Virus record (IMG/VR): IMGVR_UViG_2897369580_000001
Source of the DNA: a virus
Taxonomy: Duplodnaviria; Heunggongvirae; Uroviricota; Caudoviricetes
Length of the DNA: 42,873 bases
Reading direction: 5' to 3' (one strand)
The translations under genes and the position numbers were made by a program. Under the pieces are notes generated by a model. It worked only from the letters and a program-made list of their open reading frames with translations. It was not told the DNA's origin and did not search any database. Of the stretch, positions 23,053-37,166 are shown in pieces. Within the stretch, counting starts at the first letter, position 1. Every line of letters starts with the position of its first letter.

Positions 23053-23232
23053 TTACGCGTCAGGGGGTGTAATAGTATATCCAGCTATTTCTGCCAACTC
23101 GAGAAACGCCATCAGGCTGGCAATCCGCTCATCATCGGTCAGAACACGCACACCAACGATGTGTCCGTCCTTACGCTTGATAACAGCCCGGCATGTTTCC
23201 GGTAGTTCGCCTATAGATTCTTGAATATTCAT
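23053..23232 (-). CDS. Small protein under a LexA-box promoter (SOS-inducible; antirepressor candidate)
   Basis: 59 aa from ATG at 23232 with GGGGGGAAG RBS; promoter and LexA box directly upstream. Confidence 0.5.
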   Translation of the reverse strand: MNIQESIGELPETCRAVIKRKDGHIVGVRVLTDDERIASLMAFLELAEIAGYTITPPDA

Positions 23233-23254: not shown

Positions 23255-23270
23255 CTGTATATTTATACAG
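23255..23270. promoter_or_regulatory. LexA (SOS) box overlapping a sigma70-like promoter
   Basis: CTGTATATTTATACAG fits CTGT-N8-ACAG with AT-rich spacer; on minus strand -35 ATGACA, 17-nt spacer, -10 TATAAA inside the box. Confidence 0.7.
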
Positions 23271-23383
23271 TATTTTATGGCATTTGTCATAACGCCAAAT
23301 ACAATGAGGGAATAATGAACAATTATATTCACGTCGTGAATTTTATTAAACGGTTTTATAGGGGATTAAACCGTTTATGGTCA

Positions 23384-24268: not shown

Positions 24269-24502
24269 ATGGGTACGTTAGGCAACCAGCCGTGCAGAAG
24301 TCGTTATGAGTTCGATGATTTTAATTTAGCCAATCGAGCTGCGGCTCTTACTAAGTTAGCAAAAGAAACTGGTGTATCGGTGGATACCTTAATCAAACTT
24401 GAAATTGCTATGCAACTGAATCGGCTCAACTCCATCCTTATCGAAAACGGTGACAAGATGGACGAGAATCTGGCAGGTATTGGCGAGATACTGCAGAAGT
24501 GA
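24269..24502 (+). CDS. Small putative HTH DNA-binding protein
   Basis: 77 aa; GAGGAA RBS; helix-turn-helix-like AALTKLAKETGVSVDTLIKLE; followed by terminator hairpin. Confidence 0.5.
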   Translation: MGTLGNQPCRSRYEFDDFNLANRAAALTKLAKETGVSVDTLIKLEIAMQLNRLNSILIENGDKMDENLAGIGEILQK

Positions 24503-24508
24503 GAGTAG

Positions 24509-24524
24509 CCCCTCTTCTGAGGGG
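24509..24524 (+). terminator. Intrinsic terminator-like hairpin
   Basis: CCCCTC-ttct-GAGGGG perfect stem, then TTGCACATTT. Confidence 0.45.
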
Positions 24525-24802
24525 TTGCACATTTAAAATATTAAGGGCGGTCTTCTTCACGTACACAGTCACCTGGTCGAATCGTTCACGCATACTGAGT
24601 ACAAAAAATCTCAACGATAAGATCAGGTTAGACCTGTATTTTCCAGAAACATATAGACGCCTAAAAAAACACTAAACTCATGATTATCATGTATGTTTTT
24701 ACTGGAAACATTGAACCATCCACAATACAGCGTAAAAAGCAAGCAATTCACAAGATTTTAAAGTGATTTATCTGGAAGACTTTACTACTAACAGTTAATA
24801 TC

Positions 24803-24845
24803 GTACCAGAAGTGCAGAATTTGCACTTTTACAGGAATGTGGTAC
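24803..24845. promoter_or_regulatory. Nested palindromes (operator candidate) upstream of ImmA-like gene
   Basis: GTACCA...AGTGCA-gaattt-TGCACT...TGGTAC about 60-100 bp upstream of the ATG at 24901. Confidence 0.4.
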
Positions 24846-24900
24846 GGAACATGCTGTCTATATTTCAACCAATAATCGTAATGCAGTAACTGGAGGAGCT

Positions 24901-25389
24901 ATGGCTACCAACCCAAGAGAGCACGCCCGGCGAGTGCTGGACACGTTCTGGTGCGGGCGTGGTTTCCCTGTTGATCCAGCGAAAATTGCTCACGACATGG
25001 GATTAGATGTTTTTATTACCGATCTTCCTGGGAAAGTTTCTGGCGCACTGATTAAACAAAAAGATCAAGATCCAGCGATCTTTCTAAACAGTGATGACAA
25101 CAAAGTTCGTCAACGTTTTTCATGTGGGCATGAGTTGGGGCATTACATCGCCCGGCAAGCATCGCATAGCGATGAATATGAGTACGTTGATTTACGTGGC
25201 GAAACCGCAAGCGCCGGAACGCATCCTGATGAAATTTTTGCAAACAAGTTCGCAGCAGAACTTCTGATGCCGGTAGATGAGGTCAGAAAACTGCACGCTG
25301 ACGGTCAACCAAGTTATATAATGGCGCATTATTTTGGCGTATCTGACGATGCGATGACTTATCGTTTAAAGAACTTGAGGTTGGGGTAA
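24901..25389 (+). CDS. ImmA/IrrE family metallo-endopeptidase (DUF955/COG2856-like)
   Basis: 162 aa; GGAGGAG RBS; HEXXH in ...SCGHELGHYIARQ... typical of ImmA/IrrE zinc peptidases. Confidence 0.8.
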   Translation: MATNPREHARRVLDTFWCGRGFPVDPAKIAHDMGLDVFITDLPGKVSGALIKQKDQDPAIFLNSDDNKVRQRFSCGHELGHYIARQASHSDEYEYVDLRGETASAGTHPDEIFANKFAAELLMPVDEVRKLHADGQPSYIMAHYFGVSDDAMTYRLKNLRLG

Positions 25390-25398
25390 CGCTTTAAA

Positions 25399-26004
25399 AT
25401 GCCATCGGATGACGATTTTAACAGCCGTTTCAAACAGGAAGTAGCACGCAGACTGAAGGATTCCCTCAACCTACACCGTCAGTTAGCAGAAGAGGTTGAG
25501 CCGGAGGACGATGAAACTCCGGTTCAGTCTCCTGACGAAGCTTCACCTCAGCCAAAGGTTTCGCACGCCCCCAAAAAAACGGCTGTCCGTATTCGCGGAA
25601 TAGCCAGAAAAAGAGCTGCCGAAGCTCGCAAAATGGCTGTAGCTGCGTCTAGCAAAAGAATTCCAACTGCTACACCCTCTCAACAAGTCACCCGTACTGA
25701 GAGTAAAATCTTGACCGAGTTCACATCTGTGAAACAGGTGAATTCACTTGATACCGAGCATGAGCGCAAACAACTCAACAACAAAGATTTTGAAGCAGAA
25801 ATCGCTCTAAAAAAACGATACGGGAAATGGTTCCTGATTATCCTTGCTTTCCAACTTCTGATAATGAATGGTGTATTTATTGCCGACGGCGCAGGTAAGC
25901 TGGAATTTGAGGATTTAACACTACAGTTGTACATGGGCGGTACTTTGACAGAGGTATTCGGCCTCGTGCTGGTCGTGACAAAATACCTTTTTAAACGCAA
26001 GTAA
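25399..26004 (+). CDS. Membrane protein with charged N-terminal region and two C-terminal TM helices (putative effector)
   Basis: 201 aa; starts 9 bp after peptidase stop; C-terminal hydrophobic helices; last 72 bp duplicated at 29355..29426. Confidence 0.65.
   Translation: MPSDDDFNSRFKQEVARRLKDSLNLHRQLAEEVEPEDDETPVQSPDEASPQPKVSHAPKKTAVRIRGIARKRAAEARKMAVAASSKRIPTATPSQQVTRTESKILTEFTSVKQVNSLDTEHERKQLNNKDFEAEIALKKRYGKWFLIILAFQLLIMNGVFIADGAGKLEFEDLTLQLYMGGTLTEVFGLVLVVTKYLFKRK
25933..26004 (+). repeat. Direct repeat copy 1 (3' end of membrane-protein gene)
   Basis: 72 bp, about 90% identical to 29355..29426; encodes MGGTLTEVFGLVLVVTKYLFKRK*. Confidence 0.9.
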
Positions 26005-29450: not shown

Positions 29451-30269
29451 TCAAAATGCTGAATTAGCAACGGATATAGCCGACTTTTTCCCCATTACCA
29501 TCAATTTATCCAGTGTCATACTTCGCAGATTGTCGCTGTGGATCACCAGATACCCTGCCCGCTCAGCGATCTCTTTGAAAGCGTCAAAGGTCATCAGATG
29601 TTCGCCTTTGGCAACATGGCGCATCCCGGTCACTTTTCCATTTTTGATAGTGGTGATAAAAGAAAAATCTGGAATGGTTGGGTGATTTTCATCGAGTAGC
29701 AGGCAGTGGATGTATTCAATCGCCTCTAACATTTGCGTCTGTGACAGTTGTTCTATGTGAGAGACGGCGAAGCGTTGATGAATCATGGTGTAGGCATCGG
29801 GATACATCATGCCTTTCTTGCCGACCAGTATATTAACGGCATCACGCAAGGGAGTACGGTCATCGGTAGTTGTACTCCGCCTCTCTGGACGCTGGCTAAA
29901 ATAACAATCTTCCAGCTTTTCGAAAACTTCCCAGGCCTGTTCTGTTTCCAGCATTTTGGCATGGCGAGCTGCGCCGCGTTCTGTCCAGAGAATGAGGGAT
30001 CGGGTATGTTTAGCAACTGACTGACTATCTGTCAGTCTGTTTTTGAAGTCGCGTAATTCATTACCTTCCAGCTTAAAAAAATGCTTTCCTACGACAAATC
30101 TGGCGATGTTGCGCTTGAAGTTTTGCTGGATACCATTTACTTCCGTGCCATACAAACTGGCAAGCAATTCAGTAGTGATGACGGGAAGTTGGTTATGATG
30201 TAGCGGAGAAAGGGATTCCGCAGATATTTGGACTGTCATCGCAGTGGCCTCACTTAGTGTTTTTTTCAT
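29451..30269 (-). CDS. Phage antirepressor-like protein (ORF6N/Ant N-terminal-like domain)
   Basis: 272 aa from ATG at 30269; N-terminal ...LPVITTELLASLYGTEVNGIQQNFKRNIARFVVGKHFFKL... resembles Ant/ORF6N regions. Confidence 0.55.
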   Translation of the reverse strand: MKKTLSEATAMTVQISAESLSPLHHNQLPVITTELLASLYGTEVNGIQQNFKRNIARFVVGKHFFKLEGNELRDFKNRLTDSQSVAKHTRSLILWTERGAARHAKMLETEQAWEVFEKLEDCYFSQRPERRSTTTDDRTPLRDAVNILVGKKGMMYPDAYTMIHQRFAVSHIEQLSQTQMLEAIEYIHCLLLDENHPTIPDFSFITTIKNGKVTGMRHVAKGEHLMTFDAFKEIAERAGYLVIHSDNLRSMTLDKLMVMGKKSAISVANSAF

Positions 30270-30301
30270 CACCACCAGCGACGCCAATCATCTGGTGGTG
30301 A
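30269..30301. promoter_or_regulatory. 10-bp inverted repeat abutting antirepressor start codon
   Basis: TCACCACCAG-N13-CTGGTGGTGA; 3' arm contains the probable RBS. Confidence 0.4.
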
Positions 30302-30511
30302 GCTGTGCAGGGTTGGCGTAACCGGCTAAGTGAACCCGGCGCTTCCACAGAAGCCCCCACACAGCCCACCATAATGCGAATGTGGCCGTGCCTAACACAT
30401 AAAAAAACCGCTAACGCGGCTATGCGTCACTTAGATATCCGGGACGCCAATCCCGGCAACCGATTTTGCGGCTGCGCGGAAACTATAGCCCCGGACTTTT
30501 TCTAAGTCAAT

Positions 30512-30733
30512 TCAATCAACTTCAAACCTCCGGTGTTCACATTCCATACACTCAACGGGAACATCATCGCGATGCAAGTCCACATATCCGACCCGCTTAT
30601 ACAACTCAATAATGTCCGGTAACGTGACCAGATGTTTTTCCGGTTCCAACACCTCAGCCCGGGTTACTTTGTAATCTGAAATATAGAGCACTATCCGCCC
30701 GTTCCGTGGTAACTCCAGTTTATCGCCAAACAT
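30512..30733 (-). CDS. Hypothetical small protein
   Basis: 73-aa ORF co-oriented with early-right operon. Confidence 0.35.
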   Translation of the reverse strand: MFGDKLELPRNGRIVLYISDYKVTRAEVLEPEKHLVTLPDIIELYKRVGYVDLHRDDVPVECMECEHRRFEVD

Positions 30734-34557: not shown

Positions 34558-35034
34558 TCATGCATGGTGGTCTTGCGCAGTGCGTATCACTGCTCCTCGC
34601 GTCGCTACCAGCGCCGCTATTGCTTCGTCAATTTCCTGAATAGTTAACTCTGGCGCGAAGTGGAGATGTACAGCGTTAATCGCTTCCACCCCTTCTTTTG
34701 CCGCCAGCGTTGCCAGCAAAACGGGATCGCCCGGCGACTCCAGACGTGCCCGCCGTTCTGCGGGTAGCACGGCTTTCATCACACTGGCCAGCACCTGAGT
34801 TTTTCGGCGCGCCGCCGTTGTCTCGCCACGTAACCAGCGAAAGATTTTCTGCCGATTGTTGTTGATGGCTCTCCAGTCCACGTTGCCGTCCGCGTCCTCA
34901 AATTCATGTAGTCTCAACTCATCATTGCGTCCCTGACTGAACCAGGCCCGGCAGATTTCAATCGTGACGAGTTCCTGCCCTGCCCTTGCCGCCCAGGTCA
35001 AAATCTCTTTTTGTAATTCCTCTTGGTTTTCCAT
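34558..35034 (-). CDS. YdaT-like protein (putative CII-like regulator)
   Basis: 158 aa; ...QKIFRWLRGETTAARRKTQVLASVMKAVLPAERRARL... resembles Rac YdaT; directly downstream of Cro-like gene. Confidence 0.55.
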   Translation of the reverse strand: MENQEELQKEILTWAARAGQELVTIEICRAWFSQGRNDELRLHEFEDADGNVDWRAINNNRQKIFRWLRGETTAARRKTQVLASVMKAVLPAERRARLESPGDPVLLATLAAKEGVEAINAVHLHFAPELTIQEIDEAIAALVATRGAVIRTAQDHHA

Positions 35035-35092
35035 AGCGTCTCCTGTCGCTAAAAATTGATTACGCTTAATCAGATTTGGGGCTCACCAACAG

Positions 35093-35323
35093 TTAAGCTG
35101 CTTCCGTTTTAGGCAAGCTGTCATCTGGGTTTGGGTAAAGATCCGGTCTAAGATCATGAGGGGTCACGCGCCATTCAAGAGCTTCAGATGTGCGCAAAAC
35201 CTCTTCACCGGGAACCCGTCCTTTGAACCAGAGGCTTACCGTTTGTGGTTTTTTCCCTAATCGCCGCCCTAACTCGGATTGACTCATTACGGAAAGAATT
35301 TTGTCTTGCAGTTGTTTATCCAT
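35093..35323 (-). CDS. Cro/DicC/YdaS-like HTH regulator
   Basis: 76 aa from ATG at 35323 with AAGGAG RBS; HTH SQSELGRRLGKKPQTVSLWFKGRVPGEE; divergent from repressor gene. Confidence 0.65.
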   Translation of the reverse strand: MDKQLQDKILSVMSQSELGRRLGKKPQTVSLWFKGRVPGEEVLRTSEALEWRVTPHDLRPDLYPNPDDSLPKTEAA

Positions 35324-35348
35324 ATGGACTCCTTGTGTCCGCGTCATC

Positions 35349-35388
35349 ATTACAAACAATAACTGTAATTACAAATTATATTTGCAAT
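35349..35388. promoter_or_regulatory. Operator cluster in divergent immunity promoter region
   Basis: ATTACA-N9-TGTAAT (35349..35369) overlapping ATTACAAAT-N3-ATTTGCAAT (35368..35388). Confidence 0.5.
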
Positions 35389-35421
35389 GCTCCCTACAAT
35401 TAAACCTTGTATCCTTACGGT

Positions 35422-35835
35422 ATGAACACAAAAACGAAAAACATGGCTTTTGCTAGCCGACTACAACGGATTCTAAAAGACTTAGGCTGGTCTCAATCTG
35501 AGTTAGCTCGCCATATTGGGGTTACGGCTCAATCAGTTCAGGCATGGTGTAATGGGGTAACTCCAAGAAAAGATAAATTAGACAAGCTAGCAAAAGTGAC
35601 CGGATACCCTGTTCATTTTTTCTTCATGAATGAAGGGGAATATTTGGATGAATCCACACTACACCCGGGTAATTACAATCAAGAACTAACCCCGCAAGAA
35701 CAGGCTCTACTGCAACTATTCAGAGGACTGCCTGAGAGCGAAAAAAATAAATTAATCAATGAGCTAAAAGAAAAAAGAGAGCACTTCGATCTACTGCTAA
35801 AAGAACTACTTGAAGCCAAAAACCAGACAAAATAG
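35422..35835 (+). CDS. Prophage repressor, DicA-like (N-terminal XRE HTH, no S24 peptidase domain)
   Basis: N-terminal HTH SQSELARHIGVTAQSVQAWCNG; C-terminal ...LTPQEQALLQLFRGLPESEKNKL...LLKELLEAKNQTK resembles DicA C-terminus. Confidence 0.7.
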   Translation: MNTKTKNMAFASRLQRILKDLGWSQSELARHIGVTAQSVQAWCNGVTPRKDKLDKLAKVTGYPVHFFFMNEGEYLDESTLHPGNYNQELTPQEQALLQLFRGLPESEKNKLINELKEKREHFDLLLKELLEAKNQTK

Positions 35836-35953
35836 TTCAGTTCAAATTTCCAGGCCAGCCGCTGCTGGCATGCAACTTTCCCCTAACACAAAAACACCTT
35901 TACACAGTGAATATTTTTTTGCCCCTCACTACAAATTATTTTTTAAAAACACA

Positions 35954-35982
35954 TTGACCATTACAAATACAAATTGTAAAGT
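35954..35982 (+). promoter_or_regulatory. Early-left promoter candidate with operator-like palindrome
   Basis: -35 TTGACC (35954), 17-nt spacer holding TTACAAAT-ACA-AATTGTAA, -10 TAAAGT (35977). Confidence 0.4.
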
Positions 35983-36318
35983 CACTTTCATCAACAACGC
36001 TTACCCAGCGGCAGTTGTTCAGAAACACGTTCTGACAGCCGGAAAGACGGCACCAAATTTTGCGCGTCGGCGCCAACACGGTGACAGAGGGAAAGACTTC
36101 ACCGGCATATGGCACATGTGTCGAAGCGGTCTGGATGGAAGCGGAGCCTTAACGCGTTGTCTCCATAGCAGGTAGCCGGAATGTGCAAGCCACAGCCAGG
36201 TATGAGCGATTGATTCACCATCAAGGCGATACGGTGTGACCACCAGGGAAGAGTCCTGGCTACAACACGAGAGCGCACTTCATCGACTCAACTTTGAGCT
36301 TTGTCGTTAAATTTTGAA

Positions 36319-36404
36319 ATGGCGGAGTGCGCTCCCGGTTGTGGTGAACAGGTGTTTAACGGGAACTCCCTGCCCGTTACCCGGTTCGATTCCGGGCGCC
36401 CATC
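36319..36404 (+). other. tRNA-like element (T-arm signature; unverified)
   Basis: CCCGG-TTCGATT-CCGGG (36380..36396) is a canonical T-stem/loop; acceptor pairing imperfect. Confidence 0.2.
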
Positions 36405-36519
36405 ATCAATTTGCTGTGTTTAGTCTTTGCCCAGTCCGCACGATGGGCCATTTTTTCACACAGCCAGGTTTTATCGCTGTGCCTGAGTCCCCAACAGGAG
36501 AGGCCAAACCCGCAGCGTG

Positions 36520-36620
36520 ACACCAGGGAAAGACCGGAGGAAGTACCACGCCTGACCAGCGTTGACCATGAGCCTGACCAGCTCAAAACAGGAAAGACCA
36601 GCCCGGGCCTGACCAGCCCT
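36520..36620. repeat. Short direct-repeat array (CCTGACCAGC x3; GGAAAGACC-like x2)
   Basis: GACC cores at 36532, 36554, 36564, 36576, 36596, 36611; more copies downstream. Confidence 0.5.
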
Positions 36621-36845
36621 GTACGGTCGTAATGGAAACATAACGACGCCGGAAACGTAACCGGCACCCTTTAGATAGCAAAAGACCCGCACAAGGCGGG
36701 CCAGTTACCCCGAACGGCGACCAAACCATTCGGATTTATCACAAGTGACCAAACTTGTGATGAGGAAAGACCAACGACACTGACGCTATGGAAGCTGATC
36801 AATATTCGCTGATCGGCTCTGAGTATACATTACCAAGGAGTCGCT

Positions 36846-37166
36846 ATGGAAGCGCGCACCATCCCAGTAACACTCTTTATTCATTATGCAACTTCAACTT
36901 TCAGCCACGAAAAGCTGCTTGTTGCGACTGTTGATATGTCAAAAAATTTTCCAGACAGGTACATCCTTCTGGAAAGCCGCGAAATTGAAATTACCGTTAA
37001 CCAGCCCGAGCCAATCGACATCATCGGTTTACAGGTCGAGCAACTGCGTGAACAAAAACAGAAAACAGTCGCCGACGCCCAACAGCGTATTGCTGCTATC
37101 GATGACAAAATCCAGCAGTTACTTTGCATCGAATACACGCCAGATACCGATGAGCTCCCCTACTAA
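36846..37166 (+). CDS. Hypothetical early-left protein
   Basis: 106 aa; AAGGAG RBS 7 nt upstream; coiled-coil-like C-terminus. Confidence 0.5.
   Translation: MEARTIPVTLFIHYATSTFSHEKLLVATVDMSKNFPDRYILLESREIEITVNQPEPIDIIGLQVEQLREQKQKTVADAQQRIAAIDDKIQQLLCIEYTPDTDELPY

Follow-up and report, generated by a model that had tools for sequence, protein, structure and literature searches.

The immunity locus of a lambdoid prophage of Escherichia coli was analysed in a window of 42,873 nucleotides (nt), the whole stretch of DNA of IMG/VR virus record IMGVR_UViG_2897369580_000001. The locus (positions 35,093–35,982) probably forms a lysis-lysogeny switch whose repressor is not cleaved on induction and is inactivated via a 59-residue protein of the Rem family, encoded 12 kb away by a gene apparently under LexA control. 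Induction of this kind is known from the Gifsy prophages, whose repressors remain uncleaved and are inactivated by LexA-controlled antirepressors; DicA and RacR were named as further members of that repressor family (PMC3121763). The coordinates of all features discussed below are collected in Table 1.

The repressor features an amino-terminal DNA-binding domain of the XRE helix-turn-helix (HTH) type and a short helical carboxyl terminus. PGAP/RefSeq annotates a shorter protein starting at 35443, which lies probably 21 nt too far downstream. The ATG at 35422 is favoured because a Salmonella relative has Leu where codon 35443 codes for Met and because the longer amino terminus, MNTKTKN, parallels METKN of DicA. 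Pfam identifies only HTH families in the repressor (HTH_3 at 1.7e-12) and no S24 domain at E-values up to 0.1, and neither an Ala-Gly nor a Cys-Gly dipeptide is present among its 137 residues. Similarity to DicA extends over the full length (31% identity, E 1e-15) and similarity to GtgR of Gifsy-1/2 covers 98% of the query (33% identity), the three proteins having the carboxyl-terminal motif LLxLFxxLPE(S/A)E in common in the alignment. The NCBIfam DicA model NF007257 is matched over 131 of its 135 positions with 72.6 bits, which does not reach the cut-off of 101; DicA itself scores 234 bits. By these comparisons the repressor classes as a heteroimmune relative of the DicA/Gifsy kind and not as a DicA orthologue.

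Among PDB sequences, the 434 repressor DNA-binding domain is the best match (4e-5, residues 4–60 of the 130-residue form). The AlphaFold model is all helical with a mean predicted local distance difference test (pLDDT) score of 80. It shows five helices within residues 3–68, a disordered linker (residues 75–86), a short helix and a helix of 30 residues, a predicted fold that leaves no room for an S24 domain. Foldseek matches to this model are generic XRE HTH domains. The only longer alignments (113–129 columns), with a root-mean-square deviation of 9–10 Å, involve SinR as complexed with SinI (rank 4) and, at rank 21, a phage repressor to which a small protein is bound, a likeness that is an architectural analogy only. 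The XRE HTH, the short length, the lack of an S24 domain and of Ala-Gly, and the full-length homology to DicA and GtgR are the sequence attributes of the non-cleavable Gifsy/DicA/RacR type; the S24 domain, Ser/Lys dyad and Ala-Gly that characterize autocleaving repressors of the Lambda CI/LexA type are not found. Having no S24 protease domain, the protein would therefore not respond to RecA by self-cleavage. The initial annotation of this DNA, made from the letters alone, had proposed an XRE HTH, a DicA-like carboxyl terminus and the absence of an autocleavage domain, and all three proposals were borne out.

Three palindromic sites of 21 base pairs (bp) with half-site ATTACAAAT occur within the window only at the immunity locus. 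Two of them, Oa and Ob, lie between the divergent regulator genes. The third, OL1, fills exactly the 17-nt spacer of a promoter situated just downstream of the repressor gene. This PL analogue is the only sigma-70-like promoter reported by the scan in 35000–37000, and from it the leader, the exonuclease-like gene and, farther on, xis and int are expressed. The sites exceed chance expectation by far. When up to three mismatches are allowed, ATTACAAATNNNATTTGTAAT has three matches (1–3 mismatches each), against an expectation of 0.02 when the entire window is shuffled, and TTACA-N9-TGTAA is found twice with 0.07 expected in the window. Since the DNA around the sites is AT-rich, a local control was run by shuffling only the two AT-rich noncoding stretches of the locus, and none of 20,000 shuffles carried two or more sites. 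The half-site consensus, obtained by pooling the sites of the window with those of one relative, is ATTACAAATA. The overlapping palindromes in the intergenic region and the related one inside the downstream promoter had both been noticed beforehand and both stand. The fourth site, the half-palindrome OL2 upstream of OL1, was missing from that earlier list; it is conserved in the Salmonella, Klebsiella and Serratia relatives.

A strict promoter scan of the gap between the cro and repressor genes found none, and a lenient scan gave candidates only. In the best candidate for the cro promoter (PR analogue), a perfect TATAAT is found on the minus strand at the centre of Ob, and the same pair of hexamers is present in the Serratia relative. 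An alternative candidate has Oa in its spacer. Either of the two is covered by Oa and Ob and would be blocked on their occupancy.

A large protein search yielded five usable relatives of the repressor, and a scan of genome contigs yielded only one. Identity to the window repressor is highest for Salmonella (87%), followed by a metagenome (68%), Serratia (67%) and Klebsiella (66%). All five relatives keep the two intergenic sites with a start-to-start spacing of 19 bp, and those with enough downstream sequence also retain the half-site upstream and a PL-type promoter whose spacer holds a site. The recognition helix of the repressor, GVTAQSVQ(A/S)WC, is common to all five. Other helix-3 residues are found together with different palindromes at the same positions in DicA, GtgR, Klebsiella phage ST16-OXA48phi5.1 and a sibling prophage in E. 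coli JX2. A constant architecture in which the operator changes alongside helix 3 is the pattern that real operators should produce, here in a sample of five relatives that is too small for covariation statistics.

The gene divergent from that of the repressor is the first of the rightward-type early operon and codes for a protein of the YdaS family (PF15943 at 35.7 bits with a gathering cut-off of 30; phrog_35 at 2.7e-24). It had been described as a DicC/YdaS-like Cro. The YdaS part of this description is retained and the DicC part is not: the protein gives no BLAST alignment with DicC and does not match P22_Cro (PF14549), the family to which DicC belongs with 44.1 bits. The following gene codes for a YdaT-family protein with similarity to phrog_163 'CII-like' (7e-42) and to YdaT of CP-933P (PDB 8bt1, 1.2e-4), an arm of the switch that was overlooked in the initial annotation. 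YdaS and YdaT of CP-933P act as analogues of Cro and CII and not as toxins (PMC8630535, PMC9986795), and the switch thus has all three classical players. The motif defined for YdaT, TTGATT-N6-AATCAA (PMC9986795), has a single match in the window, with one mismatch. This match alone is not significant, as 30 of 100 shuffles give one, and it is its position in the gap between cro and ydaT that supports it as a candidate binding site. Both the domain and an inverted repeat at the cro/ydaT boundary, as expected for the YdaT type, are thus found at the sequence level.

The input for DNA damage is likely provided by the 59-residue open reading frame (ORF) at 23.2 kb. Its gene is flanked by the replication genes and by ninB/Q and so is separate from the immunity region, a placement comparable to that of the LexA-controlled antirepressor genes of Gifsy (PMC3121763). 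Its LexA box is the only CTGT-N8-ACAG of the window, agrees with 17 of the 20 positions of the 20-nt LexA consensus and overlaps the −10 hexamer of an SOS-type promoter read from the sequence. The box is kept in ten viral contigs that carry homologues of the 59-residue protein with 75–100% identity, including a position upstream of the 75%-identical homologue where the flanks have diverged. Pfam, NCBIfam and PDB sequence searches with the ORF were empty. It belongs to phrog_340, as does Rem of the Qin prophage (4.4e-21), both proteins scoring at about 1e-20, and it was aligned with Rem and with the carboxyl terminus of the Ant protein described below. Rem is an experimentally shown antirepressor of DicA whose action derepresses dicBp 165-fold (PMC10448788). 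The link between the immunity locus and this ORF, suggested earlier from the lack of an S24 domain, thereby gains real support from the family that it shares with Rem and from the conservation of the box down to 75% identity. Antirepressor-linked induction is the best available explanation, at the level of family homology.

According to the proposed mechanism, the repressor would reside in the lysogen, most likely as a dimer, on the 21-bp operators. Oa and Ob would be occupied over the cro promoter, and OL1 and OL2 over PL, so that both early operons are silenced. DNA damage would lead to inactivation of LexA and opening of the promoter at 23.26–23.29 kb (ATGACA-17-TATAAA). The 59-residue protein would then bind the repressor without cutting it and free it from DNA, as was shown for GfoA/GftA of Gifsy and for Rem acting on DicA, after which the YdaS-type Cro would occupy the shared operators. 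During infection, YdaT bound at TTGATT-N6-AATCAG between cro and ydaT would favour repressor synthesis.

Several observations weigh against this mechanism. The 59-residue ORF has no pairwise BLAST similarity to Rem or GftA; its connection to Rem is made by the shared profile family and by a 73-residue paralogue that serves as a bridge. A group of homologues with 42% identity lacks the LexA box, and no LexA box is found near rem of Qin. Any position given to the promoter of the repressor gene is tentative, as neither strict nor lenient scans reported a convincing one and no PRE-like promoter could be placed. The same prophage encodes an M78 peptidase and two more modules of the Rem-like kind, any of which could be the real inducer or an additional one. 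Finally, the 59-residue gene accompanies a heteroimmune repressor in the JX2 sibling (L051, NZ_CP173160.1, 27309–28100), and its product is therefore promiscuous or not immunity-specific. This sibling has the same backbone with a swapped immunity module. It keeps the 59-residue gene (97% nucleotide identity, LexA-controlled), Ant and YdaT, and it carries different operators, a different Cro protein of 65 residues and a repressor that is 52% identical to DicA and 33% identical to that of the window. The part conserved between the two repressors is the carboxyl-terminal LLxLFxxLPESEK region, which hints that this region is the target of the antirepressor and fits the cross-reactivity of Gifsy antirepressors.

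The additional Rem-like modules and the peptidase, like OL2, had been overlooked in the initial reading. The second Rem-family ORF, of 73 residues, finds both Rem (1e-4) and the 59-residue ORF (5e-5) by BLASTP. The third module forms residues 197–238 of the ORF6N-type protein Ant (phrog_340 at 4.2e-12). Upstream of ant, the C4, isrK and a1b1 RNAs score above the Rfam gathering threshold (75.2, 80.4 and 52.9 bits, respectively), and a promoter TTGACT-17-TATAGT is read from the sequence of this stretch (30291–30488). By its elements the block corresponds to an immI-type RNA gate of phage P1. An unlikely alternative is that the effective inducer is the Ant fusion, gated by C4/IsrK, or the 73-residue paralogue of the early operon, the 59-residue protein then perhaps acting mainly on repressors of other resident prophages. 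All three proteins carry the phrog_340 module, Ant has a very strong match to a PHROG annotated as anti-repressor in addition to the RNAs directly upstream of its gene, and the 59-residue gene is found with a different repressor in JX2. Antirepressors can moreover act on heteroimmune repressors, and FsoA, which is under phage-repressor control, does not contribute to induction of the phage that encodes it (PMC3121763). However, an SOS input is found only at the 59-residue gene, and a phage without an S24 repressor needs one to be induced by DNA damage. The placement and control of that gene copy the Gifsy arrangement, whereas the 73-residue gene lies behind a repressed promoter and is therefore unable to start induction.

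The M78 metallopeptidase of the ImmA/IrrE/CapP type is encoded in a three-gene cassette (24269–26004, plus strand) on the strand opposite to the early genes, together with a 77-residue ORF and a 201-residue ORF of unassigned function. The cassette may serve accessory or defence functions, or it could supply a protease acting on an XRE repressor. It is quite improbable that induction by the 59-residue protein has to be replaced by cleavage of the repressor linker in trans after DNA damage, in the way of ImmA/ImmR and CapP/CapH. The strong Pfam and PADLOC matches of the peptidase and the disordered linker between the HTH and helical domains of the AlphaFold model would suit such cleavage. This route is rated low because the peptidase gene does not adjoin that of the repressor, as ImmA-type genes normally do with their substrate, but lies 10 kb from it in a separate, oppositely oriented cassette of accessory appearance, and because repressors of the Gifsy family stay uncleaved on induction (PMC3121763). 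A toxin-antitoxin or addiction module, suggested by the Pfam names YdaS_toxin and YdaT_toxin and by weak matches of the repressor to NCBIfam HTH antitoxins, is hardly credible in a complete lambdoid prophage (O-like, DnaB, ninB, Q, lysis and structural genes, xis, int) that has a further set of operators at its PL-like promoter, given that YdaS and YdaT behave experimentally as Cro and CII analogues and not as a toxin-antitoxin pair (PMC8630535, PMC9986795).

Table 1. Features of the immunity locus and of related regions. Positions are those of the window unless another sequence (designated L) is given.
Feature	Position	Strand	Remarks
Prophage repressor	35422..35835	+	137 residues; 434-like XRE HTH, disordered linker, carboxyl-terminal helix-turn-long-helix
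Cro analogue, YdaS family	35093..35323	-	76 residues; ATG at 35323, AAGGAG 6 nt upstream
CII analogue, YdaT family	34558..35034	-	158 residues; PF06254 2e-15, 57.4 bits
Candidate YdaT binding site	35056..35073	none	TTGATTACGCTTAATCAG; in the 58-bp cro/ydaT gap
Operator Oa	35349..35369	none	ATTACAAACAATAACTGTAAT; position kept in 5 relatives
Operator Ob	35368..35388	none	ATTACAAATTATATTTGCAAT; 2 bp common with Oa; position kept in 5 relatives
Operator OL1	35960..35980	none	ATTACAAATACAAATTGTAAA; fills the PL spacer
Half-palindrome OL2	35928..35948	none	ACTACAAATTATTTTTTAAAA; 32 bp upstream of OL1/PL
PL analogue	35954..35982	+	TTGACC-17-TAAAGT; just downstream of the repressor gene
Best candidate cro promoter (PR analogue)	35375..35404	-	TTTAAT-18-TATAAT; lenient hexamer scan
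Alternative candidate cro promoter	35374..35346	-	TTGTAA-17-AATGAT; Oa in spacer
LexA box	23255..23270	none	CTGTATATTTATACAG; minus strand reads TACTGTATAAATATACAGGT
SOS-type promoter	23262..23290	-	ATGACA-17-TATAAA; LexA box overlaps -10; read from the sequence
Rem-family ORF, candidate SOS-controlled antirepressor	23053..23232	-	59 residues; phrog_340 1.6e-20
Second Rem-family ORF	30512..30733	-	73 residues; phrog_340 3.5e-21; PR-operon strand, end of early genes
ORF6N-type Ant	29451..30239	-	262 residues; PF10543 8.9e-22; phrog_4792 'anti-repressor' 2.7e-163
C4 antisense RNA	30291-30376	-	directly upstream of ant
isrK	30401-30475	-	directly upstream of ant
a1b1 target	30436-30488	-	directly upstream of ant
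M78 metallopeptidase, ImmA/IrrE/CapP type	24901..25389	+	Peptidase_M78 7.7e-18; PADLOC capP 2.4e-25
ORF of 157 residues in relatives	L004 (Serratia) 2910-3383; L036/L037 2927-3400; L038/L039 2931-3404
PL leader counterparts	L003 7438-7505; L002 6743-6675 (-); L035 3017-3085; L051 28094-28160

The region transcribed from PL shows a number of further features. The start of the PL transcript (35988–36060, plus strand), consisting of CATCRACA followed by a hairpin, is common to the phage, its relatives, Gifsy-2, ST16-OXA48phi5.1 and dicBp of Qin, and is thus shared despite different immunities. The hairpin is formed by AACAAC/GUUGUU in the window, by GACAAC/GUUGUC in Gifsy-2 and by AACACC/GGUGUU in Qin. 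It is followed by AAACGUUCCGCU in four heteroimmune phages and by ACGUUCUGAC at that position in the window. This shared start may be a conserved leader RNA element. Where the relatives have enough sequence, all of them carry an ORF of 157 residues without assigned function between the repressor gene and PL; the window lacks this ORF. In lambda the corresponding position is taken by rexAB, and in CP-933P by paaA2-parE2.

Downstream of PL, the stretch 35990–36845 shows no convincing ORF and carries no RefSeq annotation. It contains an element at 36348–36458 (plus strand) that resembles the small RNA RprA (Rfam RprA at 37.4 bits, below the gathering score of 70). The core of this element, the 3′ half of the match (about 36405–36458), consists of AAUUUGCUGUGUUUAGUCUUUGCCC, a terminator hairpin and a U-run, and is very close to the conserved single-stranded stretch plus terminator of E. 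coli RprA. Judged by eye, the conservation in the phage element does not extend to the rpoS-pairing part of RprA. The sequence UUGCUGUGUKUAGU is also found, with different terminator stems, in the Klebsiella (L038, about 3655–3703, 41.2 bits) and Serratia (L004, about 4354–4410) relatives and is absent from those of Salmonella. The element occupies the place of DicF in the dicB operon of Qin. A literature search found no paper on an RprA-like phage RNA.

The octamer GGAAAGAC is present in 11 copies in the window, against an expectation of 1.2, and all of them are on the transcribed strand. Five copies are located in the ORF-free stretch (36041, 36090, 36527, 36591 and 36764, plus strand), none of them followed by a start codon. 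Among the remaining six, at least four lie 1–2 nt before start codons (34518, 32098, 37197 and 41625), in the manner of a Shine-Dalgarno sequence. The ORF-free stretch also carries GCCTGACCAGC three times between 36550 and 36617, and CCCGGTTCGATTCCGGGCGCCCATCA at 36370–36405 (plus strand), which resembles the T-arm and 3′ acceptor strand of a tRNA. ARAGORN reports no tRNA at 36370–36405 and the tRNA-Sec model gives 19 bits only; the stretch may be the relic of an old attachment site. Terminator-like hairpins are found on the minus strand at 36594–36702, e.g., GGCCCGCCTTGTGCGGGTC followed by a T-run (36702–36684), and one of these hairpins has a weak isrK-like match (14 bits).

It is possible, if on the doubtful side, that one prophage combines three Rem-type antirepressors under separate controls, namely LexA (59 residues, 23.2 kb), the early operon (73 residues, 30.6 kb) and the C4/IsrK antisense-RNA gate (ORF6N-Rem, 29.5–30.2 kb), all acting on the carboxyl-terminal helical domain of DicA-type repressors, with a small RNA in the PL transcript that copies the 3′ module of the host small RNA RprA. 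Three differently controlled antirepressors would, if this holds true, allow several signals to be integrated and heteroimmune neighbours to be induced as well. Some novelty of the locus lies only in the multiple Rem-like modules and in the side observations reported above.

The 1.9 kb around the immunity locus are 100% identical to chromosomes in more than 400 complete E. coli genomes, most of them from human isolates; in total, 473 of the 5,426 complete genomes of this species carry the locus. Many carriers are human clinical isolates, one of them labelled O25b:H4-ST131. In strain SA186, xis and int form the end of the element, which adjoins a tRNA-Leu/Cys/Gly cluster, pgsA and uvrC. The order of genes on the minus strand is cro-like, CII-like, O-like, DnaB, accessory genes, ninB, Q, lysis and structural genes. 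The plus strand carries the repressor gene, the PL promoter, about 850 nt without annotated gene, orf106, a gene for an exonuclease-like protein of 738 residues, xis and int. The element looks like an intact lambdoid E. coli prophage beside the tRNA-Leu/Cys/Gly cluster. A megablast search of the locus against the phage collection revealed nothing resembling it at the DNA level, and no sequenced phage in this collection has its immunity type. Because the prophage is carried almost unchanged by many clinical E. coli, its induction route is relevant to mobilisation by DNA-damaging antibiotics; a probable route through LexA and a small antirepressor, as opposed to self-cleavage of the repressor, points to a gene worth watching.

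Among the closest known systems, Gifsy-1, -2 and -3 (GfoR/GtgR/GfhR and GfoA/GftA/GfhA; Lemire, Figueroa-Bossi & Bossi 2011, PMC3121763) have the same short HTH repressor without cleavage site, divergent Cro and CII analogues, a PL-like promoter with an operator after the repressor gene, and a small gene with a LexA box that is set apart from the immunity region and flanked by replication genes and nin genes. The operator sequence and the recognition helix differ from those of Gifsy, and the phage is therefore heteroimmune. The small SOS gene of the window also belongs to PHROG 340 whereas GftA is found in PHROG 4847, it has no dinI homologue beside it, and the prophage carries two extra Rem-like modules. 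In Qin (DicA/DicC/dicBp/Rem; Ragunathan & Vanderpool 2023, PMC10448788), dicBp (TTGACC-17-TAATCT) has an operator in its spacer with the same geometry as PL, and the antirepressor candidate of the window falls in the same PHROG as Rem, the repressors being 31% identical. Cro is of the YdaS family in the window and of the P22_Cro family (DicC) in Qin. The window features a strong LexA box, whereas rem has none and its inducing signal is unknown (PMC10448788); the prophage looks intact while Qin is cryptic.

CP-933P (PaaR2/YdaS/YdaT; Jurenas et al. 2021, PMC8630535; Prolic-Kalinsek et al. 2023, PMC9986795) has the same YdaS-type Cro and YdaT-type CII, a site of the TTGATT-N6-AATCAA type at the cro/ydaT boundary, operator sets of both OR-like and OL-like kind and a repressor without peptidase motif. 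It differs in having four 18-bp repeats in OR, where the window has two 21-bp sites, and paaA2-parE2 downstream of the repressor gene, where the window has no gene before PL. The C4, a1b1 and isrK matches directly upstream of an ORF6N Ant gene are what the window has in common with immI of P1/P7 (C4 RNA, icd-ant) and with IsrK-AnrP of Gifsy-1; in the window, by contrast, Ant carries a carboxyl-terminal Rem-like module and is accompanied by the small LexA-controlled Rem-like gene. Phage 434 provides the best PDB match for the DNA-binding domain. Its operator core, ACAA-N6-TTGT, resembles the ACAA-N7-TTGT of the window, in which the half-sites are one bp further apart. The first Gln of helix 3 in 434 is Ala in the window repressor, and a short helical hairpin takes the place of the S24 protease-type carboxyl-terminal domain.

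The locus is thus a well-supported but ordinary heteroimmune switch of the Gifsy/DicA/CP-933P kind that would not surprise a specialist. Its concept follows a mechanism that was published in 2011, with extensions in 2021–2023. It adds a new pair of operator and recognition helix to the DicA/Gifsy family, and it gives the Rem-type antirepressors a clear SOS input that is absent from rem of Qin.

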